Below are positions 22,574-43,820 of a DNA stretch of 64,000 bases, one piece after another (position 1 is the first letter of the stretch; each line of letters opens with the position of its first letter). Location: contig NVWO01000001.1 of the NCBI GenBank assembly GCA_002746255.1, positions 97,198-161,197 on the forward strand. The letters are read 5' to 3'. The notes beneath the pieces were generated by a model. It searched no databases and was not told where the DNA came from. It worked only from the letters and a program-made list of their open reading frames with translations. Both the position numbers and the translations under genes were made by a program. The DNA is from Rhodospirillaceae bacterium. Its GTDB lineage: Bacteria; Pseudomonadota; Alphaproteobacteria; GCA-2746255.

Positions 22574-22649
22574 GTCCCCTTCGTCTAGCGGTCCAGGACA
22601 TCGCCCTCTCACGGCGAAAACAGGGGTTCGATTCCCCTAGGGGATACCA
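22574..22649 (+). tRNA. tRNA-Glu (anticodon CTC)
   Basis: GTCCCCTTCGTCTAGCGGTCCAGGACATCGCCCTCTCACGGCGAAAACAGGGGTTCGATTCCCCTAGGGGATACCA forms a cloverleaf. It has a 7-bp acceptor stem with G1:U72, T-loop TTCGATT, anticodon loop CTCTCAC and an encoded CCA. It is near-identical to enterobacterial tRNA-Glu. Confidence 0.85.
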
Positions 22650-22650
22650 A
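22633..22650. repeat. attL-like 18-bp direct repeat (TCCCCTAGGGGATACCAA) covering the tRNA-Glu 3' end
   Basis: An exact 18-bp copy recurs at 43803-43820. Confidence 0.7.
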
Positions 22651-22696
22651 TTTTCTTATTCGGCGCTTAAGTTCAGTGACTTAGCTATCCAAGACA

Positions 22697-24466
22697 TTGC
22701 CAGCTTCCTGCGTTGTAACAACAACGTGCTACAGCAAGGAGGTTGTCTTGTCCGTGCGAAGCCCTGCACATTTAAAGCACCGAAGTGGCGTCTTCTACTT
22801 TCGCAGAGCCGTTCCAGAGCCGTTCCGTGACATCGTAGGGCGGCGTGAACTCTGTCTTTCGCTGCGGACTCGCGACGTTGCGACCGCTAGACTCCTTTGT
22901 CGATTGTGTTCGAATCTATTCGAGCAATTGATGGAGGCGGTGGACAGGATGCCTGGGCTCGGCAAGAACAAGGTCGATGCGATGATTCGTAGCTACTTCG
23001 AGAGGCTACTCTCGAAGACGGAAGAGATCGTCTTTCTTACGCCACAGGACCCATCGATCGACCCAGAGTTCGAAGCGACCTTAGCTGAGGAGGATAGGCA
23101 GCGCCTCCAGGCTGAATTAGCCAAGGGAAAATTCGATAAAATCACTCTGCTAGAGGCCCAAGAACTAGCCGGCACGGGAGCGAACACGCCCCATAACGTT
23201 TCGGCAGACAAATTCAGGGCAATTTGCAACGGGGTCTTGCGTGCACGAATAGAACAGCGCCGCATATACGTGGCCATGTTGCGCGGTGCGTTTGATGAAG
23301 TGAAATCGAAGGACCCTTTGTTTGATGGCGTAACTTCGACGGGAATGCCGCCTCTTCCCGGGGACGAGCCGGAGCCCAAACAACTTACATTGGAAAACGT
23401 TATCGATAAGTTTTGTGCCATGAAGGAAGTTCAGGACTGGACGTCGAAAACAGCCGACGAGAACCGAAGAATACTGGGGTGGTTCCGCGAACAAATCGGT
23501 CCAACAAAAAACATTAACGATATAAATATCGAAGACGTTCGAGAGTTTAGGGACACGCTCTTCAAACTCCCAAAACACTTCACAAAAACAGTAGCGTTTG
23601 AGGGCATGGGGCTTGCTGAGATTGCGGCGGCCAAACCTGCGGGGGAGAAATTGGGTGCAAGCACATTGCAGAAATATTTTGGCTGTGTGCGCTGGTTTCT
23701 TAGTTGGTGTGGGGACGAGTACGACATTGACACGTCGAAGATGCTGAAGCTCAAGATTGGGCATAAAATCAATAGCTTTGACGCCAGGGAGCCATTTTCC
23801 CACGATCAACTAAAACGGCTTTTTAAATCCCCTCAGTTTACCGGCCATAACTCGCCATCTCACCGGGCAACGCCTGGCAGCCTCCTCATCAAGGACGGTA
23901 AGTTTTGGATACCCCTGATAGGTCTCTACACCGGGATGAGGCTGGGCGAGATTGTCCAACTTCTCGTAACCGATGTGCGCGAAGAAAAGGACGTGCTTCA
24001 CTTCGATGTTAACAAAGGAGAAGGTGACGCCAAGAAGACGCTGAAGACCAAGAGCAGTGTGCGCCGCATTCCTATTCACCCGGACTTAATACGCATGGGG
24101 TTTATGGATCATGTAGCGTTACAGCGACAAAAGAATCCGAAGGGCAGGGTATTTTCCGAGATTAAGACGGGAAAGAATGGCGACCATAGTCACAACATGA
24201 GCAAGTATTTTGGACGCTACCTTAAGCTGGTTGGGGTCAAGACGGGTAAAACGACCTTTCACAGTTTCCGTCACAACTTCGCTGATGCGCTGCGAAATGC
24301 TGAAGCCGAGGACTCGAGGATTAAAGCGCTGATTGGTCATGCCGAAAAAAGCACGACTGGTATCTACGGGGTTGGGGTTTTGCTTAAGGTATTAGCGAAG
24401 GACGTGGAGCGGATTAACTACGATCTCGACTTTTCCCACCTCTTTATCAATGCCAAAGACATTTGA
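22697..24466 (+). CDS. Tyrosine-type site-specific integrase (long N-terminal arm-binding region)
   Basis: N-terminal RSGVFYFRRAVP box typical of island integrases. Catalytic region contains R(LGEI), HSFRH and Y (TTGIYGVG). Adjacent to the tRNA. The exact start codon is uncertain. Confidence 0.85.
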   Translation: MPASCVVTTTCYSKEVVLSVRSPAHLKHRSGVFYFRRAVPEPFRDIVGRRELCLSLRTRDVATARLLCRLCSNLFEQLMEAVDRMPGLGKNKVDAMIRSYFERLLSKTEEIVFLTPQDPSIDPEFEATLAEEDRQRLQAELAKGKFDKITLLEAQELAGTGANTPHNVSADKFRAICNGVLRARIEQRRIYVAMLRGAFDEVKSKDPLFDGVTSTGMPPLPGDEPEPKQLTLENVIDKFCAMKEVQDWTSKTADENRRILGWFREQIGPTKNINDINIEDVREFRDTLFKLPKHFTKTVAFEGMGLAEIAAAKPAGEKLGASTLQKYFGCVRWFLSWCGDEYDIDTSKMLKLKIGHKINSFDAREPFSHDQLKRLFKSPQFTGHNSPSHRATPGSLLIKDGKFWIPLIGLYTGMRLGEIVQLLVTDVREEKDVLHFDVNKGEGDAKKTLKTKSSVRRIPIHPDLIRMGFMDHVALQRQKNPKGRVFSEIKTGKNGDHSHNMSKYFGRYLKLVGVKTGKTTFHSFRHNFADALRNAEAEDSRIKALIGHAEKSTTGIYGVGVLLKVLAKDVERINYDLDFSHLFINAKDI

Positions 24467-24481
24467 GGGATATGCACTTTC

Positions 24482-25570
24482 ATGCCGGTGATCTTCAATT
24501 ACAAAGGTACCCTTCACCCTAACAAGCCCCCCAAGGGAGGGAAGACAAAGTATAAGGTAGATATAAGCGATATAGGGAATAGCTATGAAAGACTGGATGG
24601 TTCCGATGTCCACTTGCTAAGACCCAAGATAGATTATCTAAGCGTAGTCTACGACGTGACTGACAAGGATGATCAGGAAGGCATCGTATCTAACCTCGTC
24701 GGCATTAAGAAAGATGCAGGTGTCCCCTATGCGAAGGACCCACCTAAGTCCTCAAATCTTTTTAAGGGTTACGAGATAGAACTTAGCTTGTTCCATGAGC
24801 CATCCGGGAGCTATATCGACGTTCAGGCTCGTCCTACCTCCAAGAAACAAAAAAAATTCATGCGCTTTCAGTTCATCCCATCGGTTCTGGGGAAGGAAGG
24901 ACTGTCTTTCATGAAAGATGAATTAACCAGTATTTTCAATGACGAGATGGCCTATGAGAAGATTGCGACTCAGGGAAAAGTCACCCGGGTTGATGTTGCC
25001 TGCGACATAATCAATGCTCAGATAAGTGAATTGCTGTTCCGACCGAGGAAGAAGGGTAAGAGGCATGCTTACTACTCTCAAGAAGGGGCCTTGGAGACGA
25101 TCTATATGGGGGTAAAGAAGAAGGACAAGAACAGCGACCTTTATGCCTATGACAAGGCTCTACAGCAGGAAGAGGATGAAATAGGGCAAACCTATCAAGG
25201 CGTCGTGCACACACGAGTAGAGTTCAGGGTCAAAACTCAGGTTCCGATAGTAAAATTGGCGTCGCTTGCCAGCCCACTAAGCAAGCTGGATGTGTTTGAT
25301 TGTGTTGCTGTCGCGCCCCCGGAGAAGGACCATAATTGGTGGCACTTCGTAGACAGTTGCCGTCATAGGGGTATAGACGGGGCGCTGGACATATTGCCGG
25401 ACGGAAAACGCAAACTCTACAAAGCCGCGTTAAATAAATCGCTTCATACGATGTGGAACCCGGAAAAGCTGTGGTCATATTGGCCGGACGTTCTTAAAAA
25501 ATCGGGGCTGCTGGACTTCAAGAAAGAAACTTCATCGTCAGGGCCCGATTGCAATCAATTGCAATATTAG
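24482..25570 (+). CDS. Putative rolling-circle replication-initiator-like protein (Rep_trans/RstA-like)
   Basis: 362 aa. Motifs VTRVDVACDI and TIYMGVKKKDKNSDLYAYDKALQQEED are reminiscent of the Rep_trans family (R.D.A.D ... Y.G.R.S....R.YDK..E). The match rests on remembered motifs only and was not checked by a database search. Confidence 0.4.
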   Translation: MPVIFNYKGTLHPNKPPKGGKTKYKVDISDIGNSYERLDGSDVHLLRPKIDYLSVVYDVTDKDDQEGIVSNLVGIKKDAGVPYAKDPPKSSNLFKGYEIELSLFHEPSGSYIDVQARPTSKKQKKFMRFQFIPSVLGKEGLSFMKDELTSIFNDEMAYEKIATQGKVTRVDVACDIINAQISELLFRPRKKGKRHAYYSQEGALETIYMGVKKKDKNSDLYAYDKALQQEEDEIGQTYQGVVHTRVEFRVKTQVPIVKLASLASPLSKLDVFDCVAVAPPEKDHNWWHFVDSCRHRGIDGALDILPDGKRKLYKAALNKSLHTMWNPEKLWSYWPDVLKKSGLLDFKKETSSSGPDCNQLQY

Positions 25571-25983
25571 AACCGTCCCAGGCTCTACAAACATCATACG
25601 CCATCCGGACACAGCCCCCTTCATGGGTTAGTGGCGAGGCTTTATCTTGCCTTAGAGACCCTATACCTTTGCCCGTGGAGCGGTACGCGCTGCTCTGGGG
25701 CTTTGTAACCCCGTCTATAGCGGTTGGTGCTGACCGTAACAGCGCCACAGTCCTTGACCTCTTTGGTCGGGGAGCCTGTGGCGTATGTCCAGGGCTTCTC
25801 GCCTAAAGGCCATAGGGGCCGCCTATAGACGGTTTACAAACTCCCCGATCACCAGGGATCAAGATGGGACCTACTTGCGGGGGCGTACCGCAAGCTTTGG
25901 TTTCGGGAGTGGTGGCGATGGGTAGAGACGGAACACCAATTTTGGTATCCGGGGGAGATTCAAGAACCCTCAGAAGGCTGCGC

Positions 25984-27114
25984 ATGGATGGCACGGAGAA
26001 CGCGCACAACGAGAAGTGGCTTCAGAAGCTAATTCACCGTCATCCTACATGCATCCCCATGGATCAGATCGAGCCTGGCCTATCGACGCTGGTCCCTGTT
26101 TGCATGGAACTTCCTTTGTCCTGTGGCTTTCTGGACAACCTGCTAATGACCCCCGATGGGGACATCGTAATCATCGAGGCTAAACTTTGGCGCAACCCGG
26201 AAGCTCGCCGTGAAGTCGTCGCGCAGGCTCTTGATTATGCCTCCAGCCTATTTGGCATGGACTACGATTCGCTTGAAAAAGCAGTGCTGAAGGCCGATTT
26301 CGATAACAAGGAGAAGCCTGCTCGCCTGTACGACATATTCAGCGACGCTGACACGCTCGATGAACCGGCCTTTGTCGATGCTGTGACCACCAATCTCAAG
26401 AATGGCCGTATCGTCGTCCTTGTGGCCGGAGACGGGATCAGAACAAGTATCGAGACCCTGATTGACGGGCTCCAGTTACATGCCGGTTTTCACTTCACCT
26501 TCGCCCTCGTCGAGTTGGCGGTATTTCGAGGCATGGATGATGATGATTTTCTCGTCGTGCCGCGCACACTGGCCAAGACATGCATGATCGAGAGGGGCAT
26601 CGTCCGCATAGACAACGGACAGGTTGAGATCGTTCCCGTTCAAGGAAAACCAGAAGTCGCGTCTTCCAGTCGCCTTCAATCTATTAGTTCCGAACAATTC
26701 TACGAAGCCATGAAAGAGAGAGCCTCTGGCCTGCCGGAAAGCTTGAAGGCCTTTGTGGACAAGCTATCGGCTCTGGGCGTCTATCCGGAATTCCAGCGTT
26801 CCCTGAACCTCAAATGGGACCCGCCATCAGGCAAGCCAATTAATCTTGGATACATCAAGCGGACCGGACAATTGTGGACCGATGCAGCCAGTTGGTCTCT
26901 TTCCGATAAAAAACTCGCTCGATCTTACATTGAGGACCTAGCTGAAATATTCGGGGGAGAAATTATGTATATCGGCAAGGACAAAATTCCATATGTCGCT
27001 GTGGAAGGGCATGCTCCGCGTATTGAAACGCTGGTGGACAAATTAGACGTCTGGCATGGGGCAATTGAAAAATTACAAGATCATGTCAGGCAAAATATTT
27101 CCACGGAGGGCTGA
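25984..27114 (+). CDS. NucS/Hjc-type PD-(D/E)xK nuclease-fold protein with ~250-aa C-terminal domain of unknown function
   Basis: GFLDNLLMTPDGDIVIIEAKLWRNPEARREVVAQALDYA matches the D...E.K...Q..Y core of the NucS/DUF91 restriction-endonuclease fold. Track ORF starts at 25864. ATG 25984 has an AGAAGG-like RBS. Confidence 0.5.
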   Translation: MDGTENAHNEKWLQKLIHRHPTCIPMDQIEPGLSTLVPVCMELPLSCGFLDNLLMTPDGDIVIIEAKLWRNPEARREVVAQALDYASSLFGMDYDSLEKAVLKADFDNKEKPARLYDIFSDADTLDEPAFVDAVTTNLKNGRIVVLVAGDGIRTSIETLIDGLQLHAGFHFTFALVELAVFRGMDDDDFLVVPRTLAKTCMIERGIVRIDNGQVEIVPVQGKPEVASSSRLQSISSEQFYEAMKERASGLPESLKAFVDKLSALGVYPEFQRSLNLKWDPPSGKPINLGYIKRTGQLWTDAASWSLSDKKLARSYIEDLAEIFGGEIMYIGKDKIPYVAVEGHAPRIETLVDKLDVWHGAIEKLQDHVRQNISTEG

Positions 27115-27127
27115 TCCAGCCGCAGCA

Positions 27128-27973
27128 ATGTCAATTAAAAAAAGCAGGACAGATGTGGTGAAAACAATTAGAGAGAAAAAAATCGGAAAAGTTACCCTGC
27201 GGCTGGTTGATGCCGGAAAGGCATATGCGGGCATTGTCCTTCAAGAGGGCAAGATAAGCTCGCATGTTGAAGGGGCTGATCCGGAAGATGTTTGGCAAAA
27301 ACTAGAAGCCAGCGCCGCAAGGAGCAGTCCAAACTACTTCGGGTTTGAAGCTGCAAAAAACCGCTTTCTGTCTTTCTTTCCAGACGGGTTTGCGTCTGAA
27401 CATTACCTGAGCAAGGAACGTCAATATAAGCTTCAAGCCAAAGAATTGCTGGATAACACAGTGCCTCTTGATGCGGCATTAAATAGCTCAGGTCATGGTG
27501 AGGCCATAAGGGCCGTTTTCAATAAAACAAACCTAATATCGCCATTCGAGAAGATGCGATTGAATGACGCTCTGCTTAGTGACCAGGCAGATCAATTTAT
27601 CAACGGTGCTGCCCGAATGGCATCGGGGGAGATAAAAAATGGTCTGCGTGAAATGGAGAAATCTCTGAAGCCACATGATGTAGCTAAATGGACTGTTGTC
27701 ACGTACCTGCCATTTTTATGGAATCCAACAAAACATATGTTTTTGAAACCGACAATCACCAAAGATTTTTCGGAACGGATAGGCCATCCTTTTTTCAATA
27801 ATTATGAAGCCAAGCTTGATATTGGGGTTTATGAGAGCTTGCTTGATTTGGTTGATAAGACCGAACAGAAAATTTCCGGCCTTGGTCCACAAGACCGAAT
27901 TGATACTCAGAGTTTTATTTGGATCGTTGGGGCATATGATATGGAAGTCGATGTGTCAGAGGTTCACGCATAA
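27128..27973 (+). CDS. Hypothetical protein (middle gene of the nuclease-ExoI operon)
   Basis: A 282-aa ORF starting 13 nt after the preceding stop. No motif recognised. Track ORF 27056 overlaps the previous gene, so the ATG at 27128 is preferred. Confidence 0.4.
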   Translation: MSIKKSRTDVVKTIREKKIGKVTLRLVDAGKAYAGIVLQEGKISSHVEGADPEDVWQKLEASAARSSPNYFGFEAAKNRFLSFFPDGFASEHYLSKERQYKLQAKELLDNTVPLDAALNSSGHGEAIRAVFNKTNLISPFEKMRLNDALLSDQADQFINGAARMASGEIKNGLREMEKSLKPHDVAKWTVVTYLPFLWNPTKHMFLKPTITKDFSERIGHPFFNNYEAKLDIGVYESLLDLVDKTEQKISGLGPQDRIDTQSFIWIVGAYDMEVDVSEVHA

Positions 27974-27979
27974 TCTGAT

Positions 27980-29350
27980 ATGACATTTATTTTCTACGAT
28001 ACGGAAACAACGGGGCTGTCGGCGGGCTTCGATCAAATTCTTCAATTCGCGGCGCTTGTAACCGATGACGATTTCAACGTTATCGAGGAAGTAAATCTGC
28101 GCTGCCGGTTGCAATCCCATGTAGTGCCATCGCCAGGGGCCCTCTTGGTTACGGGTGTGCGCCCGTCAGATATCCAAGGGGCCAATCTGTCCCACTATCA
28201 GATGGTCCGGAAAATTCGGAACGTGATTGAGCAGCACACGCCGGCCGTAATTGTTGGATACAACAGCATCAGTTACGACGAAAGCATGCTACGTCAGGCA
28301 TTTTACCAGACGCTCAATCCCGTCTACCTCACCAATATGAACGGCAACACCCGCATGGATATGTTGCGCGTCGCTCATGCCGTCTCAGAATATGCACCGG
28401 ACGTTTTGCAGATACCCTTGAACGATAAGGGGCGACCAAGTTTCAAGCTGGGTCTTCTTGCTGCCGCTAACGGCCTTGTTCACGAAGACGCCCATGAAGC
28501 CATGTCGGACACCTTGGTGACGCTTGGCCTGGCCAGGCTGGTGCGGGCAAAGGCACCAAAAATATGGGAGGCCATGTATGCGACGCGGGCCAAGCGCTCG
28601 GTACAGGGTTTTATGGCCGATACGGACGTCTTTTGTTTCACGGACAAGATGTTCAAGCAATCCTCGGTCCTTGCAACCCAGATAGCGCCCAGTCCGGAAA
28701 ATTCATCTCAAGTTGCAGTCTTCGATCTCTCCCACGATCCTGTCCACTATCTGGACATATCGAAAAAAGACATGGTGAGTTTGCTGCGAACAACTCCCCG
28801 CCCGATCCGCGTTGTTAAGGCCAACCAGCAACCCATCCTTGCTTCCTATGAGTTCAGCCATGTAGGGGTCGCGGGACATGACCTGCCAATTTACCAATTG
28901 CAAGAGAGGGCGCGTCAGGTAAAAGAGCACCCGACCTTCGCCGACAACGTGGCCCATGCCATTGCCAATCGTTATCCTGAGCGGGAGCCCTCCAAGCTTG
29001 TGGAAGAGCAGATTTACAATGCTTTTCCGAGTTGGTCGGATCAAAAACTGATGGAGCAATTTCACCAGCAGCCTTGGGAAGAGCGACTGGGGACCGTTTT
29101 ACAATTGACGGACGATCGATTGGGGGAGCTCGGGGAACGTCTGATCTATACGGAGCGTCCGGATGCATTGCCGGAGGACGTGATCCTTCGTCGTGATAGG
29201 TGGCGGCACGAACGAATTCATGCCGAACAGTCAGTGCAATGGGTGACTGCGGGGTCAGCGCTGGAAGAAGTCGAGTCACTCAGGACAAAGGGTTCAGGGA
29301 AGCACGAGGATTTGTTCCAAGACATTGAAATGTTCCTTGGAAAGTTGTGA
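27980..29350 (+). CDS. sbcB: Exonuclease I (SbcB) homolog, DEDDh 3'-5' ssDNA exonuclease
   Basis: Collinear with E. coli ExoI over the full length. FIFYDTETTG aligns to FLFHDYETFG (Exo I). QFAALVTDDDFNVI aligns to QFAAIRTDSEFNVI. GYNSISYDE is Exo II. RPSFKLGLLAAANGLVHEDAHEAMSD aligns to LPSFRLEHLTKANGIEHSNAHDAMAD (Exo III, H and D). Size 456 aa versus 475 aa. Confidence 0.8.
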   Translation: MTFIFYDTETTGLSAGFDQILQFAALVTDDDFNVIEEVNLRCRLQSHVVPSPGALLVTGVRPSDIQGANLSHYQMVRKIRNVIEQHTPAVIVGYNSISYDESMLRQAFYQTLNPVYLTNMNGNTRMDMLRVAHAVSEYAPDVLQIPLNDKGRPSFKLGLLAAANGLVHEDAHEAMSDTLVTLGLARLVRAKAPKIWEAMYATRAKRSVQGFMADTDVFCFTDKMFKQSSVLATQIAPSPENSSQVAVFDLSHDPVHYLDISKKDMVSLLRTTPRPIRVVKANQQPILASYEFSHVGVAGHDLPIYQLQERARQVKEHPTFADNVAHAIANRYPEREPSKLVEEQIYNAFPSWSDQKLMEQFHQQPWEERLGTVLQLTDDRLGELGERLIYTERPDALPEDVILRRDRWRHERIHAEQSVQWVTAGSALEEVESLRTKGSGKHEDLFQDIEMFLGKL

Positions 29351-29439
29351 TTGTCTGAGCTTTATTAGCCCATCCCCAGTCTCAAAAGGACTTATGGCGA
29401 CTAGAATTGGTAATTGTGTCAATTCATCAAAAAACATGC

Positions 29440-29650
29440 CGTTGACAAATATTTTGACAAATATTTCTGACAGCATGCAAACATTACGGCGATTGTCACA
29501 ATGTTAAATAAATGGCTAGAATCAAAGGCTTTTCACGAGTGCAATTGGTAATTTTAAATATAATTTGCGGGAAACAGACAGGGGCGGGTCCGCGTTGACC
29601 GCCTGTGACGTGGCGATCTTTGTGACAAAAATGCTGGTGTCAAAGTTAAA
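29440..29650. promoter_or_regulatory. AT-rich intergenic region dense in TGACA/TGTCA motifs
   Basis: TTGACAAATATTT occurs twice in tandem at 29442-29466. CTGACAGCA at 29467. Palindrome ATTGTCACAAT at 29492-29502. TGACA-N10-TGTCA at about 29612-29640. Lies between the ExoI gene and the next gene. Could be an operator or iteron array. Confidence 0.35.
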
Positions 29651-35439: not shown

Positions 35440-36743
35440 GTTTTCCGCGTTACCCGGCCTACAAGGACAGCGGCGTGGAATGGCTGGGGGACGTGCCGGG
35501 GCAATGGGAGGTGGTGCCACTTAAGTATATTTCCACTCACAACGACGATGTGCTTGTTGAAAGCACTGACCCGAACAACGAGATTACCTATGTAGATATT
35601 TCCAGCGTGGACGGGGTGAACGGAATCGCTACGAAAGAAACAATGTCATTCTCAGCTGCTCCTTCAAGGGCACGGCGGCGCGTTAGGCATGGCGATGTGA
35701 TCGTCTCAACGGTTCGCACTTATCTCAAGGCAATTGCCGTAGTTCGTGACCCAGAAGACAGCCTCATTGTCTCGACTGGTTTTGCTGTAATACGACCGCG
35801 AGATGAACTTACACCTAACTATTTAGGTTTTTTGGTTTTCGCTAGTTACTTTGTCGAACAGATCATCGTCCGCTCAAAGGGCGTGAGTTACCCCGCAATC
35901 AACGCCGGTGAACTCGTCGCTATTTCGGTGCCACTTCCTTCACCCCCCGAACAAACCGCCATCGCTGCCTTCCTGGACCGCGAAACGGCAAAGATCGATG
36001 GGCTGGTGGCTGAGCAGCGGCGGCTGATTGACCTGCTGAAAGAAAAACGCCACACCGTCATCTCCCACGCCGTCACCAAAGGCCTGAACCCCGATGCCCC
36101 GATGAAGCCTTCCGGTATAGAATGGCTGGGGGACGTGCCGGAGCATTGGGAACTTCGAAAACTCTCGCAGTTATTTCGCGCAGGAAAAGGTAAGAACGGA
36201 CAAAAACTAACGAAGGAATATTGCGCCGCCAATGAAGGTGAATATCCGGTTTATAGTGGCCAGACTGAAAACGAAGGCGTCATGGGTACATGGGATCAGT
36301 TTGAATTTGACTTCGAAGATACGGGTGTTTTGTTTTCGACGACTGTTGGCGCGAAGGCCATGAATCTGCAGCAACTTTTTGGACGGTTCAGTCTGTCGCA
36401 AAACTGTATGATCATTTGGCCGACGTCGAGCCGATGCATTACGCGGTTTTTCTTTTACCACCTCCAGCCATTGTTTCGGTATCAGCGAGCCATGATTCCT
36501 GATCACATGCAGGCGTCTTTTAGGGTGGAAGATTTGTACGGATATTTCATTGCATTACCGCCAAGCGAAGAACAAACCGCCATCGCCGCCTTCCTCGACC
36601 GCGAAACGGCAAAGCTCGATGAGCTAATAGACGAAGCTCAACGCGCTGTGGATCTGCTGCAAGAACGCCGGACCGCGCTAATTTCTGCCGCCGTCACCGG
36701 CAAGATTGATGTTCGCGGGCTTGCCGATATGGAGGCCGCATGA
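35436..36743 (+). CDS. hsdS: Type I R-M specificity subunit HsdS (two TRDs)
   Basis: Two target-recognition domains separated by conserved repeats ([29 protein letters not shown] and [29 protein letters not shown]). ATGA overlaps on both sides. Confidence 0.85.
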
Positions 36744-37714
36744 TTGCCAAGCTTGAACGTGTGCCACTTCGGGAAGTCTGGAAGCATGAGGCTTATGACT
36801 TCACCCAGTGGCTTGAAGAAAACATCGACATTCTGAGCGAAGCGATAGACTTGACGCTTGTTAATGCCGAACGAGAAAAGAAAACAGAGAGTAGTTTCAG
36901 TGTTGATCTGGTCGCGGAAGATGAAAGCGGCGCGACCGTTATCATTGAGAACCAGCTAGAGAAGAGCAATCACGACCACCTCGGCAAGCTAATTACTTAT
37001 TTGACGGCGATGCAGGCTCGCACCGCGATTTGGATTGTCTCAGAACCTCGCCCGGAGCATGTGGCCGCAATCGTATGGCTGAACGAGTCTTCCAGTGCCG
37101 ATTTCTACTTACTAAAGATCGAGGCGATCCGTATCGGGGATTCGGCTCCCGCGCCTCTGCTGACGGTGATTGTAGGTCCGTCAGAAGAAGGTAAATCCGT
37201 GGGCCGTAGAAAGCAGGAGAGCGGCGAGCGTTATGACATCCGTCATCGATTCTGGTCACAACTGGTCCAGCACCCGAACGCCAAACTGCACAAACACATC
37301 ACACCGGGTAAGTACGCCTGGATCGGGCTCGGATCAGGAATGCGAGGGGTCGGGTTCAACTACGCAACCACCAAAGAACAATCGGGCGCCGAGGTCTACA
37401 TAGACCGGGGCAAGGAGTTGCGTGACGAAAATCTTGCGATCTTCGACCAGTTTCACGCGAAGAAAGACGAAATTGAGAAAGCTTTTGGCGGTCCATTGAG
37501 CTGGGAACGACTGGAAGGAAGACGAGCGTGCCAGATTCGTGCGCGTGTTGATGGCGGATACCGTAATCCAGAGGAACAGTGGAACGAAATCCACGGACGA
37601 ATGACGGATGCCATGAACAGGCTCGTTGACACGATCAGGCCGCAACTGAGGCACCTTCGAATTAAAAGTTCGTTGGAAAATGTTGGGTCCGAAGGTGCCA
37701 AACTATCGCCATGA
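36740..37714 (+). CDS. NucS-like PD-(D/E)xK / DUF4268-type protein embedded between hsdS and hsdR
   Basis: N-terminus LREVWKHEAYDFTQWL...VDLVAEDESGATVIIENQLEKSNHDHLGKLITY is the (D)...ENQ...HDHLG signature of a family often found inside type I R-M operons. ATGA-coupled to both neighbours. Confidence 0.6.
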   Translation: MIAKLERVPLREVWKHEAYDFTQWLEENIDILSEAIDLTLVNAEREKKTESSFSVDLVAEDESGATVIIENQLEKSNHDHLGKLITYLTAMQARTAIWIVSEPRPEHVAAIVWLNESSSADFYLLKIEAIRIGDSAPAPLLTVIVGPSEEGKSVGRRKQESGERYDIRHRFWSQLVQHPNAKLHKHITPGKYAWIGLGSGMRGVGFNYATTKEQSGAEVYIDRGKELRDENLAIFDQFHAKKDEIEKAFGGPLSWERLEGRRACQIRARVDGGYRNPEEQWNEIHGRMTDAMNRLVDTIRPQLRHLRIKSSLENVGSEGAKLSP

Positions 37715-40700
37715 ACCTGCACAAAGAAATCAGCTTCGAAGCGGAGATTTGTGAATATCTCGCCCAGCACGGCTGGCTCTATGCCGAGGGCGATGCGAAG
37801 GCCTACGACCGGGCGCGGGCGCTGTTCCCGGCGGATGTGCTTGCATGGGTGCAGGCAGCTCAACCCAAGGCCTGGGAAACCCTGACCAAGAACCACGGTG
37901 CGCAGGCCGGTGAGACGCTGTTGACGCGTTTACGGGATCAGCTCGACCAGCGCGGCACACTGGATGTGTTGCGCCACGGCATCGAATTGCTGGGCCTGCA
38001 GAAGCCATTGCTGGTAGCACAGTTCAAGCCCGCGCTGGCCATCAACCCAGATATCCTCAAACGTTACGCCGTCAATCGTCTGCGGGTGGTTCGCCAAGTG
38101 CGATATTCGCTACACAACGAGAACAGCATTGACTTCGTGCTGTTCCTAAACGGCCTGCCGATGGCGACAGTGGAACTGAAGACGGACTTCACCCAGAGCA
38201 TTCATGACGCAATCGATCAGTATCGCTTCGACCGCAACCCAAAACCCAAGGGGCAAGCTGCTGAGCCTCTGCTGTCCTTCCCGAATGGTGCGCTGGTGCA
38301 TTTCGCGGTGAGCAACAGCGAGGTCCACATGGTGACCAAGCTGGCTGGCCCCGCCACGGTGTTCCTGCCGTTCAACCAGGGGAACGAGGGGGCAGCAGGT
38401 AACCCAGTGAACCCGGCAGGTGGCCACCGCACGGCATATCTTTGGGAGCAAGTATGGGAACGCGATAGCTGGCTGGAAATCCTGGGCCGCTACATGGTCG
38501 CCGAACGGGATAAAAAGAAGAAGATCAACAAGATCATCTTCCCCCGGTTTCACCAGCTCGACGCAACACGCAAGATACAGGCCGCCGTATTGCAGGACGG
38601 CCCGGGGGGCAAATATCTGATTCAGCACTCGGCTGGCTCGGGCAAGACCAACTCCATCGCTTGGTCCGCGCACTTCCTCGCAGAACTGCACGACGCCGAG
38701 AACAAGAAGGTCTTTGACACTGTGGTTGTGGTCTCCGACCGCAATGTCATTGACGCCCAACTTCAGGACGCCCTTTTCGATTTCGAGAGGCAAACCGGCG
38801 TCGTGGCAAAGATCACGTCGGAGGAAAGCAGCAAGAGTGCCGCCCTGGCCGACGCCCTATCCGGGACCAAGAAGATCGTCGTCTGTACCATCCAGACCTT
38901 CCCCTTTGCCATGAATGCCGTGCACGAACTTTCGGCCACTCAGAACAAACGCTTTGCGGTGATTGCCGACGAGGCCCACAGCTCGCAAACCGGCGAAGCT
39001 GCGGCGAAGCTGAAGGCGGTGCTGACCGCAGAGGAGCTTGAGGAACTGGGCGACGGCGGAGAGGTCAGTACGGAGGATATCCTGGCGGCTGAAATGGCGG
39101 CGCGGGCCGATGATGATGGCATCACGTATGTAGCGTTCACGGCGACGCCGAAAAACAAGACCATTGAAATCTTCGGCACCCGGCCCGACCCCTCGCGCAA
39201 ACCGGCGAAGGATAATGTGCCGACGCCATTTCACGTCTACTCCATGCGCCAGGCCATAGAGGAAGGGTTCATCCTCGACGTGCTGCAGAACTACACCCCT
39301 TACAGCTTGGCGTTCAAGCTGGCCCAAGGGGGCAAGGAGATCGACGAGAAAGAGGTCGAACGCAGTACCGCACTTAAAAAGATTATGGGTTGGGTGAAGC
39401 TCCACCCGTACAACATCGCGCAGAAAGTACAAATCGTCGTCGAGCACTATCGCGAATACGTGGCCCCGATGCTGAACGGGCAGGCCAAGGCGATGGTCGT
39501 CGTCAGCAGTCGGCTGGAAGCGGTGCGTTGGAAACTGGCCATCGAGAAGTACATCAAGGAGCAGAGTTACCAGATCGGGACGCTGGTGGCCTTCTCTGGC
39601 GAGGTGAATGACAAGGAATCTGGACCAGATGGTTTCAAAGAGAACGGCAAGATTTTGAATCCCAACCTGAAGGGACGCGACATCCGCGAGGCGTTCAAAG
39701 GCAGCGAGTATCAAATCCTGCTTGTGGCAAACAAGTTCCAGACGGGCTTCGACCAACCGTTGTTATGTGCGATGTACGTCGATAAACGGTTGGCGGGCAT
39801 CCAGGCCGTGCAGACCTTATCGCGCTTGAACCGCGCCTATCCCGATAAAGACAAGACCTACGTGCTGGACTTTGTGAACGATACAGATGAGGTCCTGGAG
39901 GCCTTCAAGGCGTATCACACCACGGCAGAACTCTCGGCAACGACCGACCCAAACCTCGTCTTTAACCTTCGTGCCAAGCTCGATGCCGCTGGGCACTACG
40001 ACAGCTTCGAGGTCGACCGCGTTGTTGAAGTGGAACTCGACCCTAACGCGAAGCAAAGCCAATTGGTTGCTGCGCTGGAGCCAGTACAAGACCGCCTGAT
40101 GAAGCGCTACAAGGCCGCTCAGCAAGCCTTGCAGGTTGCCAGGGAAAGTGGGGATGACGCAGCCATCACGGTCGCTCAGGACGAACAGAACGCGCTGATC
40201 CTGTTCAAGGCGGACATGGGCGCTTACTTGAGGCTATACACTTTCCTGTCGCAAATCTTTGACTACGGAAATACCGATATTGAAAAACGCGCCATCTTTT
40301 ACAAGCGCCTGATCCCGCTGCTGGAGTTTGGCCGAGAGCGCGAGGGTATTGACCTCTCTAAAGTCACCTTGACCCATCATCACCTGAAAGACCTCGGTAA
40401 GCGAAACTTACCTTTGTCCGATGGCAAGACGCCCAAACTTGACCCGATCACCGAAGCAGGCAGCGGCAGTGTTCAGGAAAAAGAGAAAGCTCTCCTCAAC
40501 GAGATCATCGAGAAGGTGAACGACCTCTTCGAGGGCGAGCTGACAGACCAAGACAAACTGATTTATGTGAACGATGTGATCAAAGGGAAGTTGCTGGAGT
40601 CGAATACGTTGAGGCAACAGGCGACAAACAACACGAAAGAACAGTTCGCCAACTCACCGGACCTCCAAACCGAGCTGATGAACGCAATCATGGGTGCACT

Positions 40701-40824
40701 GGACGCACATAATTCAATGAGCACGCAGGCTCTAAACTCCGATAAGGTCCAGCGCGGACTGAAGGACGTATTGTTGAACACCGTTGGGCTTTACGAGTCG
40801 CTGCGCGATCAGTCTGCAAGTTAA
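37711..40824 (+). CDS. hsdR: Type I restriction endonuclease subunit HsdR
   Basis: HSDR_N nuclease region. SF2 helicase Walker A HSAGSGKT and DEAH box VIADEAHSSQ. Helicase C domain. 1037 aa. Confidence 0.9.
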   Translation: MNLHKEISFEAEICEYLAQHGWLYAEGDAKAYDRARALFPADVLAWVQAAQPKAWETLTKNHGAQAGETLLTRLRDQLDQRGTLDVLRHGIELLGLQKPLLVAQFKPALAINPDILKRYAVNRLRVVRQVRYSLHNENSIDFVLFLNGLPMATVELKTDFTQSIHDAIDQYRFDRNPKPKGQAAEPLLSFPNGALVHFAVSNSEVHMVTKLAGPATVFLPFNQGNEGAAGNPVNPAGGHRTAYLWEQVWERDSWLEILGRYMVAERDKKKKINKIIFPRFHQLDATRKIQAAVLQDGPGGKYLIQHSAGSGKTNSIAWSAHFLAELHDAENKKVFDTVVVVSDRNVIDAQLQDALFDFERQTGVVAKITSEESSKSAALADALSGTKKIVVCTIQTFPFAMNAVHELSATQNKRFAVIADEAHSSQTGEAAAKLKAVLTAEELEELGDGGEVSTEDILAAEMAARADDDGITYVAFTATPKNKTIEIFGTRPDPSRKPAKDNVPTPFHVYSMRQAIEEGFILDVLQNYTPYSLAFKLAQGGKEIDEKEVERSTALKKIMGWVKLHPYNIAQKVQIVVEHYREYVAPMLNGQAKAMVVVSSRLEAVRWKLAIEKYIKEQSYQIGTLVAFSGEVNDKESGPDGFKENGKILNPNLKGRDIREAFKGSEYQILLVANKFQTGFDQPLLCAMYVDKRLAGIQAVQTLSRLNRAYPDKDKTYVLDFVNDTDEVLEAFKAYHTTAELSATTDPNLVFNLRAKLDAAGHYDSFEVDRVVEVELDPNAKQSQLVAALEPVQDRLMKRYKAAQQALQVARESGDDAAITVAQDEQNALILFKADMGAYLRLYTFLSQIFDYGNTDIEKRAIFYKRLIPLLEFGREREGIDLSKVTLTHHHLKDLGKRNLPLSDGKTPKLDPITEAGSGSVQEKEKALLNEIIEKVNDLFEGELTDQDKLIYVNDVIKGKLLESNTLRQQATNNTKEQFANSPDLQTELMNAIMGALDAHNSMSTQALNSDKVQRGLKDVLLNTVGLYESLRDQSAS

Positions 40825-40947
40825 CCTGTCTGACGCCCGGTATTCCAAGTCTATGAAAAAGACCCTGCAAAAGTTCGCAGCCGCTCATGCCTTGATCCAC
40901 AATCATTTCAACCACGACTGCTGCCTCAACCGCCGCGATATTTTCAA

Positions 40948-41047
40948 GCAGAACCGTTCTGCCGCTCTGGCCGAATGGCGTCAATTGGCGGCCTGAAAGC
41001 GAGGTTGCCTGGCGTTTATGAGGCTTGTTTAATTATGCTGACAGCAT
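40948..41047. repeat. Right copy of ~100-bp imperfect direct repeat flanking the type I R-M cassette
   Basis: See 33491-33600. Begins inside the last codons of hsdR and extends about 220 nt into the downstream intergenic region. Confidence 0.6.
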
Positions 41048-41243: not shown

Positions 41244-42344
41244 ATGAAATTTTTCACGAAAGACGAAATGGCGAAGTCTGAAAGACTTCGCCTAAAGCAA
41301 GAACGGAAGGGCTTTCTCCGGAAGCTAACTGTTGAAGAGCATGAAAATCTAAAGAACCAACTGATACTACGCTCGCATCATCAAATTTCTGCCAGCTTGG
41401 TGCCACAGAAAAACCGAGTGTCTATTGAGTTGCCGAAGGAAATCTCACTGGCAAACAACTACGAACCTACAATCAAATTTATAAACCAACTGCGGAATAC
41501 TGTCTTGACCAAGCGGCTTCCAGTTTTTCTGCATTTTGATAATGTTGCATCAGTTAGTCCAGCCGCGGCACTTCTTATGACCGCTGAAATATATAGGTGT
41601 AGAAATCTGCGACCCGGCCGTGCAGGATTGGTGCCCGTTAACGGAAATTGGCCTTCAGACAAAAAGGCTCGCAAAGTCCTTAGTGATATGGGCTTTTACA
41701 AGCTCATGCAGCTGCCAAACAACCTTTCTGTTCTGAATGCAAAAGAGATGGACAATACAATCCATTTAGGCTTTGCCACATTTAACCACGTAGATGCAGA
41801 ACAAATAGCCTTTTTTCATCACAATCTATTAGAAAAAATCGATTTCAATCTAACAAATATGGAAAGCAAAAGGCTTCAAGGTGCAATAATTGAAGCCATC
41901 GGGAATGCATCGGAGCACGCCTATAAAATTAAAACAGAGCATCAATTTTTAAGTAATAGGTCGTGGATATCAGGATACGTTGATGTTCCAAATAAAGAGC
42001 TTATGTTCATGGTGTTAGATCAAGGCGTAGGTATCCCGAAGACACTTGATCCCACCCTTATTGAACGAGCGTTATCGATCGGAAAGTTTCGTGGCTCGAC
42101 GCCAACAGATTCTGAATTGATTGAACGTGCAGCTGAGTTTCGACGGACATCAACAGGGAATAGCGGTAGAGGAAAAGGTGTTGAGACGATGAAGCGTTTT
42201 ATTCGCACCATCGACGATGGCGAACTCAAGATATTTAGCAATCGTGGCCTTTATAGATATTCGTCTGCTGGAGCCGAGACTAGGGATGATCACGATGGAT
42301 CAATTGGCGGAACGTTAGTACAATGGCGACTGCATCAGCAATAA
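41244..42344 (+). CDS. GHKL-superfamily ATPase (histidine-kinase-like ATPase domain without HisKA), unknown N-terminal domain
   Basis: C-terminal Bergerat-fold motifs: N-box EAIGNASEHAY, G1 VLDQGVGIP, G2 GNSGRGKGV. No phospho-acceptor His box was recognised. 366 aa. Confidence 0.6.
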   Translation: MKFFTKDEMAKSERLRLKQERKGFLRKLTVEEHENLKNQLILRSHHQISASLVPQKNRVSIELPKEISLANNYEPTIKFINQLRNTVLTKRLPVFLHFDNVASVSPAAALLMTAEIYRCRNLRPGRAGLVPVNGNWPSDKKARKVLSDMGFYKLMQLPNNLSVLNAKEMDNTIHLGFATFNHVDAEQIAFFHHNLLEKIDFNLTNMESKRLQGAIIEAIGNASEHAYKIKTEHQFLSNRSWISGYVDVPNKELMFMVLDQGVGIPKTLDPTLIERALSIGKFRGSTPTDSELIERAAEFRRTSTGNSGRGKGVETMKRFIRTIDDGELKIFSNRGLYRYSSAGAETRDDHDGSIGGTLVQWRLHQQ

Positions 42345-42379
42345 TGAATTCTGATAGACTCTAAGTTGGATGTGAACGG

Positions 42380-42709
42380 GTGGATAGCAATAGACATTTG
42401 ATATCGGTGCCCAAAGATTTTTCAAAAACGCCGGGCACAAGATATATTAAGCAAGGGCCGTGCAGCGGTGAAAAATTCAGGACGTCTTGTCTGATTCCTG
42501 CGCTTGAAAAATACGACTTGTTGATTGTCGATCTAGACGGCACTGCCGGCTACGGTTCATCTTTCATTGATGAAGCATTTGGGGGGCTGATCCGAAGAGA
42601 AGGATTCAATGCTGAAGATTTATTGCGCCGTATAAAAATCAAATCGGACGAGGAAATCGAACTCATAGCCGATGTGAAAAAGGCTTTCCGTGATGCTCGG
42701 CCGAATTAG
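42380..42709 (+). CDS. STAS-like (DUF4325-type, anti-sigma-antagonist-like) small protein
   Basis: 109 aa. The segment KYDLLIVDLDGTAGYGSSFIDEAFGGLI resembles STAS/SpoIIAA-like DUF4325 proteins that pair with GHKL ATPases. This is a similarity judgement, not a search result. Confidence 0.45.
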   Translation: MDSNRHLISVPKDFSKTPGTRYIKQGPCSGEKFRTSCLIPALEKYDLLIVDLDGTAGYGSSFIDEAFGGLIRREGFNAEDLLRRIKIKSDEEIELIADVKKAFRDARPN

Positions 42710-42714
42710 ACGAT

Positions 42715-43263
42715 ATGCACAGGTCATCTGTTAGAAAACCAGAAGAACGTGTTCAGAATGTTTATAAGTGCTGTAGCGGCAAGTCGGATGGCGGCGATAT
42801 CTGGGGGGCAATTCTGCCAACGGCAATGGCGGGTGTTGGATTCTACGTTTTCCATAAATTAGCCATGCGTAGACAAAAACGGGCCGAAGTTTTCGATACT
42901 TTTCGTGACCTAAAAATGATCATTGACGATATAGACCACTTGGCGACCATTGCATGGCGAAAAACAGGGGGCGACGCGGTAAAAGATGGTGGAGTTGTGG
43001 AAATTCGCCGGAAAATTGCGCGTTGTCGAGAAGATCTCAGGCTACTAACTATGTTGGATGAGAAATTTGAAGTAGTAGCTAATCCGCTGAATGATTATAG
43101 AAGGGCGATTGACGAAGAATTAGACGATTCAGGAAACGCATTGTCCACTATCGATGACATCAATCGGTTGGGCCGGCTTGATTGGGCTATAGAAGGGATA
43201 ATGCCAAAAGCAACGGCCCTAAGGCTTAATTTAAATAAAGCCATCGCTAATATTTATGGCTGA
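42715..43263 (+). CDS. Hypothetical protein with one TM helix (third gene of the GHKL operon)
   Basis: Starts 6 nt after the STAS-like ORF. Predicted helix ILPTAMAGVGFYVFHKLAM. No motif recognised. Confidence 0.4.
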   Translation: MHRSSVRKPEERVQNVYKCCSGKSDGGDIWGAILPTAMAGVGFYVFHKLAMRRQKRAEVFDTFRDLKMIIDDIDHLATIAWRKTGGDAVKDGGVVEIRRKIARCREDLRLLTMLDEKFEVVANPLNDYRRAIDEELDDSGNALSTIDDINRLGRLDWAIEGIMPKATALRLNLNKAIANIYG

Positions 43264-43332
43264 AGGTATATAGGGCCGGTTCCAAGTGGGTGTTACGCCG
43301 TTCGGGATAGTGTCCCAGGTTTTCATAATGGA

Positions 43333-43563
43333 TCAGGCAGAGAAGCAAGATGAGCGGAGTGGGTGACCCGAGTGCGATGATTCAAGGCACCCGCTCTTGC
43401 TGTGCATGAAGCTTAAACTTCGGGTCACCTCATCTATCCTCGGATAATTTCTGCGAACTCTCATGCGGGCCAGTTGGCATTTCACATTAACCGGATAGCC
43501 CCGGTCGGTGATCTGAAGAACCGCGTCCCGTTTGAAATCGTCGCTGAAATGGACTTTGCCCAT
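43333..43563 (-). pseudogene. Fragment of an IS3-family transposase OrfA (N-terminal ~30 aa recognisable)
   Basis: KVHFSDDFKRDAVLQITDRGYPVNV resembles the IS3/IS911 OrfA N-terminus (FSxEFKREAV..V...GYSV). Similarity is lost after about 30 aa. Lies about 240 nt inside the island right end. Confidence 0.3.
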
Positions 43564-43802
43564 GATGGCCTGCTTGCTTCAAATTTAGGGAAGAAGGCAT
43601 CTAACAATCTAGGGGCTATTCATAGATAGGTGCAGAACCAGCCTGCTCCGCTGAACCTTGTCTATTTTTGGAGAAAACCTAAGAGGCTCAGGTCACTGGT
43701 CTAGCGACTGTTACATAAAACTGTTACAGTAGACGCACCGCATGGAAGCGGCATGGGTGCTAACCATCTGTATTCATTGTGTCATGAAAGCTGGTGTTCT
43801 TC

Positions 43803-43820
43803 TCCCCTAGGGGATACCAA
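43803..43820. repeat. attR-like 18-bp direct repeat TCCCCTAGGGGATACCAA
   Basis: Exact copy of the tRNA-Glu 3' end at 22633-22650. Confidence 0.7.

Follow-up and report, generated by a model that had tools for sequence, protein, structure and literature searches.

We analysed a 64,000-nt stretch of DNA (hereafter the window) from the Rhodospirillaceae bacterium assembly GCA_002746255.1, a metagenome-assembled genome of an uncultured marine alphaproteobacterium, in which the interval 22633-43820, examined here as an integrative element, runs from the 3' end of a tRNA-Glu gene to a second copy of that end. ARAGORN finds a single tRNA in the 64-kb window, tRNA-Glu(CTC) at 22574-22649 on the + strand (Rfam tRNA, 60.6 bits), which is the integration target and whose gene is still intact despite the insertion (ARAGORN, Rfam). 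The left attachment core, attL, is an 18-bp sequence, TCCCCTAGGGGATACCAA (22633-22650, +), comprising the T-arm/acceptor 3' half, the CCA and one more base, and the right core, attR, is an exact second copy at 43803-43820 (+). These are the only 2 exact copies on the + strand, where dinucleotide-preserving shuffles give a chance expectation with a mean of 0.02, even with 3 mismatches tolerated. The similarity of the two sites extends further to the left, over 35 nt at 83% identity (22616-22650 versus 43786-43820), a pattern expected of the residue of an attP in which the tRNA 3' half was present in degenerate form. Neither a 3-mismatch scan nor blastn-short with the whole tRNA revealed a third copy of the core, exact or degenerate, in the 64 kb.

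Beyond the tRNA lies int1 (22748-24466, +), encoding a 572-aa tyrosine integrase with an N-terminal DUF6538 domain (Pfam DUF6538, 1.6e-14; Phage_integrase, 3.1e-14; PHROG integrase, 4.6e-37). The original prediction placed the integrase 47 nt after the tRNA, which holds for the longest open reading frame (ORF) but not for the likely start, a TTG at 22748 that lies 98 nt past the tRNA and 5 nt after the Shine-Dalgarno sequence AAGGAGG (22736-22742); this start is favoured because the N-terminal DUF6538 domain needs those residues. The catalytic residues R398, K433, H505xxR508 and Y540 are invariant in 5 family members, and position 531 is a histidine in four members and a tryptophan in one, L090 (related loci are given L numbers throughout). 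The term 'DUF6538' appears in no paper of the searched literature.

Five independent relatives occupy tRNA-Glu genes, each with a homologous integrase adjoining the tRNA. The pair int1 and ORF2, the latter being the gene that follows int1, adjoins tRNA-Glu(CTC) in L088 and L089 and tRNA-Glu(TTC) in L082 and L083; at L011, int1 alone is seen beside tRNA-Glu(CTC), and the contig ends inside int1. The gene order in L082 and L083/L084 is tRNA-Glu(TTC), int1, ORF2, a conserved intergenic block, a small ORF, a second recombinase gene (int2), cargo and a homologue of the nuclease-like ORF3, with identities to the window of 53% (int1), 49% (ORF2), 73% (int2) and 56-60% (ORF3). L083 has its own repeated 18-mer, TCCCGTAGGGGACGCCAA, at 8168-8185 and 17951-17968, in the same tRNA register as that of the window, and these repeats bound a 9.8-kb element holding both recombinases. 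L089 (GCA_054033635.1) presents the same core locus as the window (RluD, Prok-JAB, tRNA-Glu(CTC)) with a different family member inside (int1 45%, ORF2 40%, ORF3 65%, int2 72% and ExoI 70% identity; cargo Vsr/Dcm); when its right end was sought by an int2 look-up, the locus stopped before any second att copy. At L090, a divergent int1 (28%) sits at tRNA-Met with the same backbone, the ORF6 homologue included. Both L089 and L090 were reached through ORF3 homologues. Over L082, L083, L089 and L090 the backbone genes are 34-74% identical and the cargo differs, and int1 and int2 co-occur in L082, L089 and L090. As read from gene content and order, the family backbone is int1, a Rep_trans-fold protein (ORF2), an RNA motif, a NucS/Shedu-like nuclease (often with an ExoI-like exonuclease), ORF6 and int2 with its site. 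The interval had been said to hold only accessory functions; that description fails, since ORF3, ExoI, ORF6 and int2 are conserved family backbone. We regard the family as a previously undescribed, alphaproteobacterial one.

The two ends of the element have the layout of attachment-site arms. The spacer between tRNA and int1 (22651-22747, +; alignment A1), the putative P' arm, contains paired 9-mers, GTTGTAACA (22712-22720) and GTGCTACAG (22726-22734), which are candidate arm-type integrase sites, and a block TGTAACAG..CTACAGC is kept just upstream of int1 in four family members (alignment A1). At the right end, the P arm (43700-43802, +) carries CTGTTACAT and CTGTTACAG, a degenerate tRNA-like stretch (43786-43802) and the paired repeats ACTGTTACAT (43707-43716) and ACTGTTACAG (43720-43729), which are related to the P'-arm repeats; it can be aligned to the right-hand end of the element in L083 (CACTGTAACAT..GTGTTACAG). 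From these ends we predict an attB junction that joins GGTTCGATTCCCCTAGGGGATACCAA to GCATTTCAACG (…GGGGTTCGATTCCCCTAGGGGATACCAA-GCATTTCAACGTGCTAGCCC…) and an attP junction that joins GTGTTCTTCTCCCCTAGGGGATACCAA to TTTTCTTATTCGG (…AAGCTGGTGTTCTTCTCCCCTAGGGGATACCAA-TTTTCTTATTCGGCGCTTAAG…). The shared register in L083, the presence of the family at tRNA-Glu genes and the conservation of both arms between the window and its relatives in our alignments together identify the 18-bp repeat as the att core and the 21 kb as one element. With five independent tRNA-Glu relatives and an 18-bp repeat in the same register in L083, the proposal of an integrative element at tRNA-Glu with att-like repeats is well supported, and we consider it probable that 22633-43820 forms one integrative element, 21.2 kb in length and from an undescribed family, for which a mobilisable or replicative nature is the best fit. 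An apparently different integrase-like ORF (MWTTKRAPYLYQKRGWWYF...) occurs in L003, another alphaproteobacterial metagenome-assembled genome, at 1-434 on the - strand; it starts ~100 nt past its tRNA-Glu(CTC), with the CTACAGC motif in the spacer, and the contig stops there. This case suggests that tRNA-Glu(CTC) is a recurrent integration hotspot.

ORF2 (24482-25570, +) had been called Rep_trans-like, and structure comparison bears this out. Its AlphaFold2 model (pLDDT 58.6, pTM 0.62) matches the RepDE/RepD initiators 4cwc, 4cwe and 4cij in Foldseek (probability 1.0), with E values from 2.7e-9 (RepDE) to 5e-6, and a profile of four homologues (A4) matches 4cwc with an E value of 1.2e-6. The profile alignment places VTRVDVACD opposite FTRLDLAFD and LYAYDK opposite RIYNK, the catalytic-tyrosine motif, so that Y223 in LYAYDK is the putative catalytic tyrosine. 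Pfam Rep_trans (PF02486) stays below threshold in all 4 homologues (best value 0.0031; 12.1 bits for the window protein versus a cutoff of 29.6). Three other homologues of ORF2 were detected among 5.8 billion proteins. By its modelled fold, ORF2 is a relative of rolling-circle initiators and MOB_T-type relaxases, and nicking activity is predicted. Rep_trans/MobT proteins of Tn916, ICEBs1 and streptococcal integrative and mobilisable elements (IMEs) are relaxases and also initiate rolling-circle replication (RCR) (PMC5704250, PMC6499999, PMC7563843).

Next in the backbone, after an intergenic block treated below, come the nuclease genes. ORF3 (25918-27114, +; 398 aa) has a NucS/Shedu-like PD-(D/E)xK N-terminal domain: its AlphaFold2 model (pLDDT 78) is most similar to NucS/EndoMS (2vld/5gke; probability 0.98-1.0, E 0.02) and also matches SduA (8ps5), and PADLOC reports a weak N-terminal match to PDC-S11. 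More than 2700 homologues exist, and those in L082, L083, L089 and L090 are 56-65% identical. ORF4 (27155-27973, +; 272 aa), the variable middle gene of the operon, belongs to no recognisable family (no matches in Pfam, NCBIfam, PHROGs or PADLOC, in Pfam and NCBIfam even at E<=1); unrelated genes of 147-151 aa follow ORF3 in L089 and L090, in L090 between ORF3 and ExoI. The third gene (27980-29350, +) encodes an ExoI/SbcB-like DEDDh 3'-5' exonuclease (Pfam RNase_T, Exonuc_X-T_C) that scores 1.5e-70 against the NCBIfam exodeoxyribonuclease I model, which is below the curated cutoff, and 7e-100 against the PADLOC model 'RTasSbcB' (reverse transcriptase-associated SbcB, DRT), with no reverse transcriptase gene nearby. 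It recurs in the larger relatives and is 64-70% identical in L089 and L090. The same arrangement of NucS/Shedu-like nuclease, variable small gene and ExoI/SbcB-like exonuclease (25918-29350 in the window) is also seen in L090, L093 and L136; in L089 the exonuclease gene stands apart from ORF3, after two other genes (354 and 149 aa). This three-gene operon may act in defence or may process DNA for the element. ORF6 (29909-31012, +; 367 aa), whose only match is a weak MgsA_C-like one (E 0.022), overlaps int2 by an ATGA, which points to translational coupling; its homologues lie directly upstream of int2 in L093, L136 and L149, and in L090 with a 175-aa gene in between.

The block between ORF2 and ORF3 holds a conserved non-coding sequence of ~225 nt (25677-25901, +), which we call the IG motif and which is far more conserved than the neighbouring proteins. 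Copies lie in L082 (11261-11508), L083 (11259-11506), L089 (9763-10007), L090 (9734-9982) and L091-L156, and a strict exact three-block pattern retrieves it from 66 marine and soil metagenome contigs. RNAalifold, applied to five sequences, gives a structure with 18 compensatory pairs. Across 45 distinct copies, 96% of the cells in the predicted pairs are paired, versus 82% in shuffles (reached by 0/500) and 34-53% when the pairing partners are slid; compensatory (both-side) changes amount to 291 cells versus 90 in shuffles, and the covariation score is 0.455 versus 0.188. The helix 5 G-U pairs favour the + strand as the RNA. No Rfam 15 family matches the motif at its gathering score; the only known RNA that came into question, the integron-associated sRNA-Xcc1, was rejected (21.7 bits versus a gathering score of 53, E 0.27). 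The genes flanking the motif are highly variable. A promoter-like block precedes it, and a Shine-Dalgarno sequence and start codon follow after ~15-35 nt; the ORF3 start lies 17 nt beyond it. L115 and L134 carry the motif in inverted orientation with respect to int1-ORF2. The idea that it is the single- or double-strand origin of the Rep_trans protein was ruled out on this inversion and on the finding that most of the 66 copies have no ORF2 nearby. The covariation and the placement of these signals indicate that the IG motif is probably a transcribed leader RNA, and it could serve as a portable expression or regulatory leader for island cargo.

The second recombinase gene, int2 (31009-32010, +), encodes a 333-aa XerC/D-like tyrosine recombinase (Pfam Phage_integrase, 1.6e-17) with more than 7600 homologues at E<1e-40, many of them 60-78% identical; in L082, L083, L085-L087 and L089 the identity is 72-74%. 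Inside its first codons lies the sequence CTAAC CTCTGATAA-N7-TTATCGGAG CC (31051-31085, +), whose 25-bp core, CTAACCTCTGATAA-N7-TTATCGGAGCC, consists of 9-bp inverted arms and a 7-nt spacer, the classic 9-7-9 layout of a tyrosine-recombinase core site. When 1.95 Mb of fetched loci were searched for this pattern, it appeared only alongside an int2 homologue (11/11). The site is at the int2 5' end in 6 independent loci, and a distal copy past the cargo is present in L082, L083, L087 and L089. Both copies are present in L089, at the int2 5' end and past Vsr-Dcm-375aa (12405-12429 and 16996-17020); a proximal copy is seen in L090 (6603-6627), L093/L153, L136 and L149. In L082 (19955-19989) and L083 (15437-15471) the site stands away from int2, past the cargo and immediately ahead of the ORF3 homologue, and in L087, an island headed by a P4-type integrase, the order is int2, cargo, site (14853-14877). 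The int2 family occurs in such islands headed by P4-type integrases in L085-L087.

The comparison of L082 with L083 bears directly on what this site does. The two elements are ~72% identical throughout; their cargo, whose limits are precisely the int2 stop codon and the site, is unrelated, with a type I restriction-modification (R-M) system in one and HipA_2/DUF3037 in the other. To the right of the site, over the ORF3 homologue (L082 19958-21056 versus L083 15440-16538), identity rises to 93%, which, set against ~72% elsewhere, points to a recent exchange with its breakpoint at the site. We infer from these patterns that the 25-bp sequence is a recombination site and that, together with int2, it makes up a nested module for recombination by which cargo is bracketed and exchanged. 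In the window, all that hints at a distal copy is a possible truncated half-site, CTATCCTCGGATAA (43434-43447, +), which agrees with 12/14 positions of CTAACCTCTGATAA and adjoins an IS3 fragment, and for which we estimate ~0.13 chance matches in the island. The idea that int2 is a recombinase that shuffles hsdS was ruled out: only one hsdS is present, and the repeats inside it are of the conserved kind usual for hsdS. As a tentative suggestion, held with limited confidence, two widespread and apparently undescribed modules may meet in this family, namely int2/site cargo exchange inside different tRNA-integrated islands and a new structured leader RNA for cargo.

The genes to the right of int2 are cargo, and the inventory given earlier is confirmed for the interval as a whole (two Phage_integrase proteins, ExoI-like, HTH and Fic, hsdM/S/R, a weak HATPase_c match, DUF4325, an IS3 fragment). 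An HTH_3 gene and a Fic gene (32189-33240, +; Pfam HTH_3, Fic) form the pair named 'mobile mystery protein A/B', both above the curated NCBIfam cutoffs (TIGR02612, 2.1e-45; TIGR02613, 9.9e-85). A ~23-nt palindrome-containing motif, TTGNCGTCAATNAATATATTGAC, occurs in three copies, one upstream of ORF6-int2 (29436-29458) and two upstream of the HTH-Fic pair (32099-32121 and 32132-32154); the copies resemble shared operators, which would point to joint regulation, possibly through the HTH protein. The type I R-M operon (33652-40824, +; Pfam N6_Mtase/HsdM_N, Methylase_S, DUF4268, HSDR_N/ResIII/SWI2_SNF2) comprises hsdM (33652-35439, +), hsdS (35436-36743, +), a DUF4268 gene (36740-37714, +) that matches the PADLOC defence candidate PDC-S11 at 6e-137, and hsdR (37711-40824, +); the DUF4268 gene thus stands between hsdS and hsdR, with overlapping stop and start codons. 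On either side of the operon lies a remnant of the IS6 insertion sequence (IS) family, to the left the last ~15 transposase codons and the element end (33499-33597, +) and to the right ~47 C-terminal transposase codons and the element end (40850-41046, +). The left remnant is 83% identical to 40948-41046, so that the two form 99-nt direct repeats, and the translation of the right one, ending ...FAAAHALIHNHFNHDCCLNRRDIFKQNRSAALAEWRQLAA*, matches annotated IS6 family transposases in 7 alphaproteobacterial plasmids (tblastn). The alternative that these repeats are cassette sites was ruled out, as they are the 3' ends of IS6-family transposase genes; for the same reason the R-M operon has the appearance of what remains of a composite or translocatable unit of the IS6/IS26 type. 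There follows a block with a GC content of 0.43-0.45 (41244-43263) that consists of a GHKL-ATPase-like gene (41244-42344, +; Pfam HATPase_c, 8e-5, below cutoff), a DUF4325 STAS-like gene (42380-42709, +; 2.7e-14) and a 182-aa ORF (42715-43263, +) that has no Pfam or NCBIfam match, even at E<=1. The last cargo feature is an N-terminal fragment of an IS3-family OrfA (43471-43563, -; tblastn against annotated IS3 transposases). The cargo is thus mostly of the defence type, with the type I R-M system and its embedded PDC-S11 gene, the Fic pair and the GHKL/STAS module.

Base composition separates the interval from its surroundings, in agreement with the lower GC first noticed. The element (22651-43802) has a GC of 0.516, compared with 0.594 for the left flank and 0.560 for the right flank from 45937; GC at third codon positions is 0.64-0.75 in flank genes and 0.40-0.64 in most element genes, with hsdM and hsdR (0.73-0.74) as exceptions. 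That the flanks are core genes proved correct for the left side only. The linkage of RluD to tRNA-Glu(CTC) is kept in many, even distant, Alphaproteobacteria, and hence the tRNA and the left flank are native. Among L002-L081, an int1 homologue beside an RluD-linked tRNA-Glu(CTC) was seen in L011 only, and hence the locus did not carry the element ancestrally. Immediately upstream of the tRNA gene (21758-22509, +) lie a 102-aa ORF and a Prok-JAB protein gene, which scores 1e-21, below cutoff, against the NCBIfam 'desampylase' model; a JAB gene adjoins tRNA-Glu(CTC) in L089 too, and a longer - strand ORF that covers this stretch (21745-22524) is probably spurious. The flanking RluD protein has an exact match on one contig only, the source scaffold (assembly index), and the nearest RluD in the species-representative genome set is 61% identical. 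In seven distant RluD-tRNA-Glu(CTC) loci with >=3 kb downstream there is no int1 homologue, and their right flanks are not syntenic; the right flank of the window (a nitrobindin-like gene, CFA synthase, IDH) is syntenic with none of the RluD-tRNA-Glu(CTC) loci compared. A degenerate pattern for the attL, attR, attB and attP junctions gave 0 matches in JGI metagenome contigs, a collection to which the source contig does not belong.

On the right side, a low-GC segment (GC 0.458) precedes the presumed core flank; it runs past attR from 43821 to ~45900 and contains two small ORFs and a DUF4238 gene (- strand, Pfam). The small ORFs have no Pfam or NCBIfam match, even at E<=1, and DUF4238 is also cargo in the L085 and L086 islands. 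The first ~70 nt past attR are homologous to the flank past attR of L083 (17969-18036; alignment A2), whose element lies in a different tRNA-Glu gene and a different host. This stretch reads TTTCAA..TAGCCC, a hairpin, GGGCTTTT and then TACGGAAA twice, a layout that mimics a P' arm with different arm repeats. A distal att copy bounding the segment 43821-45900 was not found in the 64 kb (3-mismatch scan, blastn-short). The segment is probably a remnant of another tRNA-Glu element displaced by the present one, which explains it only partly, and this remnant may represent a second element family using the same tRNA.

If the interval is a single mobilisable or replicative element, its insertion would have come about when int1 recombined an element-borne attP with the last 18 bp of tRNA-Glu(CTC), an event that would regenerate the tRNA and duplicate the 18 bp. 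To move on, int1 would excise a circle; the Rep_trans protein would then nick this circle, leading either to rolling-circle replication or to the delivery of one strand to a helper element's conjugation pore; and the element would finally re-insert at a tRNA-Glu gene. Meanwhile, int2 and its site would probably serve cargo exchange, as the bracketing seen in relatives suggests. A helper's pore would be needed because the island has no type IV secretion system (T4SS) of its own, and this dependence would make it an IME. The T4SS and coupling protein that an integrative and conjugative element (ICE) encodes for itself were not found between the repeats (Pfam, NCBIfam), and VirB4, VirD4, TcpA and mating-pair formation (MPF) families had no match in the main island ORFs scanned (16 inside the repeats; Pfam, NCBIfam, PADLOC). 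Scans with Pfam, NCBIfam, PHROGs and PADLOC returned no T4SS, canonical relaxase or phage structural gene, as had been noted for T4SS and relaxase at the outset. Several observations weigh against the reading of a single mobilisable or replicative element. No empty site, excised circle or attP junction was seen, the nearest genome being the one with 61% RluD identity and the metagenome junction pattern giving 0 matches. No excisionase or recombination directionality factor (RDF), origin of transfer (oriT) or double-strand origin was recognised in the element. The ORF2 model is of moderate confidence (pLDDT 58.6) and its Pfam matches lie below threshold, and it is in Firmicutes, with coupling proteins of the TcpA type, that the Rep_trans/MobT precedent was set, no comparable helper being known here. 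The IS6/IS3 remnants and the possibly truncated distal int2 site amount to decay of the cargo half, so this copy may be immobile, and the ~70 nt past attR shared with L083 are not predicted by a simple attP x attB recombination with a native flank.

The last but one of these points is also the core of the most substantial rival account, in which a family element inserted once, is now immobile and is kept only for its defence cargo. The IS6 remnants around the R-M operon, the IS3 fragment, the possibly truncated distal int2 site and the lack of a recognised excisionase or oriT in the element fit such a fossil, as does the element identity between L082 and L083 (72-73%), which is close to that of the host flank (71%) and suggests long residence. 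We nevertheless consider it unlikely, as no difference has arisen between the 18-bp repeats, no backbone ORF is truncated and the int1 catalytic residues are intact, both arms keep their repeat motifs, and different members occupy the same locus in different hosts (the window and L089), which implies repeated integration. A second question concerns the role of int2. MpsA of SGI1 is a relaxase with a tyrosine-recombinase fold, a catalytic tyrosine predicted at residue 319 and an inverted-repeat-rich oriT beside its gene (PMC6414798), and MobK is a similar case (PMC8152469). With these precedents, and given that int2 is small (321-333 aa), more conserved than int1 (73% versus 53%) and always linked to its site, the main alternative to a cargo-exchange module is that int2 is an atypical relaxase of the MpsA/TcpM/MobK type, that the 25-bp inverted repeat is an oriT or part of one, and that ORF2 serves replication only. 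Yet the distal site bounds the cargo in L082, L083, L087 and L089 and the L082/L083 swap ends at it, which is the pattern expected of site-specific recombination; moreover, no MpsB-like partner was recognised, and int2 has the full XerC/D-like layout, with SAM-like N-terminal domain matches among its homologues. A relaxase role thus appears distinctly unlikely.

Two further accounts carry still less weight. Two elements in tandem, as suggested in the original prediction, would both use the tRNA-Glu att, with int1 and its genes in the left element and int2, Fic, R-M and GHKL in the right one. This reading could draw on the two tyrosine recombinases 8 kb apart, on the heterogeneous GC along the interval and on the fact that tandem accretion at tRNA genes is common. 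There is, however, no third att core copy, exact or degenerate, between or beyond the repeats; the single 9.8-kb element that the repeats bound in L083 contains both recombinases, which also occur together in L082, L089 and L090; and int2 has its own unrelated 25-bp site and is also found inside islands with P4-type integrases, so that it behaves as a nested module and not as a tRNA-Glu integrase. We therefore abandon the tandem as very improbable. P4-like satellites combine a tRNA-adjacent integrase with defence cargo, and this combination, together with the matches of int1 and int2 to PHROG integrase families, would be compatible with a prophage remnant or a phage satellite of the PICI (phage-inducible chromosomal island) or P4-like kind at the tRNA. 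For ten island proteins, however, PHROGs gave integrases only and one ATPase match at 0.0048, and capsid, terminase, portal, primase and packaging-redirection genes were absent from Pfam, NCBIfam and PHROGs matches, which leaves a phage origin scarcely credible.

Among known systems, the Rep_trans (MobT) IMEs of Streptococcus and other Firmicutes, for example IME_Sag2603_tRNAlys and IMESag-rpsI, are the closest kind (PMC5704250, PMC5357655, PMC7563843). They share with the island a tyrosine integrase that acts on a tRNA gene or another housekeeping gene at its 3' end and leaves a short direct repeat, a Rep_trans-family protein (which in those IMEs can serve as RCR initiator and/or relaxase), the lack of mating-pore genes and the presence of R-M or toxin-antitoxin-type passengers, at a size of 10-20 kb in the MobT IMEs. 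Unlike those elements, which are described in Firmicutes, the island has an alphaproteobacterial host, an ORF2 below the Pfam Rep_trans threshold, no TcpA-type coupling protein and a DUF6538 integrase N-terminus, and it adds a second recombinase with a site, the nuclease/ExoI operon and the structured RNA motif. The SGI1/MGI islands of Gammaproteobacteria are likewise site-specific, with a tyrosine integrase at one end and variable cargo (PMC6414798, PMC8409611); the likeness extends to helper-dependent transfer (which would apply here), a replication-type gene and a second protein of tyrosine-recombinase fold (MpsA there) beside an inverted-repeat-rich site, a parallel between int2 and MpsA that is one of arrangement and not of compared sequence. 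SGI1 differs from the island in its trmE target, its Rep_3 (theta) replicase, its helper-derived tra genes and its AcaCD regulon.

The int2 module shares several traits with integrons (IntI, attI, attC): a dedicated tyrosine recombinase has a site adjoining the gene that encodes it, variable genes, often without promoters, come next, a further copy of the palindromic site ends the array, and the cargo differs between collinear relatives. The int2 site, however, is no folded attC but a plain 9-7-9 inverted repeat within the 5' end of int2, and the cargo comes in multi-gene blocks downstream of a co-oriented int2, with one distal site per array; against the integron-integrase model TIGR02249, int1 scored 28.2 bits (cutoff 265) and int2 had no listed match. 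P4-like satellites and GMT islands with GmtY are, like the element described here, small integrase-headed islands with a conserved backbone and swappable anti-phage systems. In contrast to the former, psu/delta/sid, primase and AlpA were not found here (Pfam, NCBIfam, PHROGs), and in contrast to the latter, the GmtY model scored 21.6 bits (cutoff 340) and the backbone genes differ.

Islands that are integrated at tRNA genes and carry defence genes are common, and the island as such is ordinary; what most merits further study is the int2/site module and the RNA motif. The element provides a family-backed case of a Rep_trans/MobT-type protein in alphaproteobacterial integrative elements, a biology so far described for the ICEs and IMEs of Firmicutes. 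In addition, int2 and its 25-bp site are a testable candidate for the swapping of defence cargo inside islands, and a strongly covarying RNA motif without an Rfam family stands before variable island genes in dozens of marine and soil metagenome contigs. Together, these features would help to explain how small non-conjugative islands replicate, move and renew their cargo in uncultured marine bacteria.

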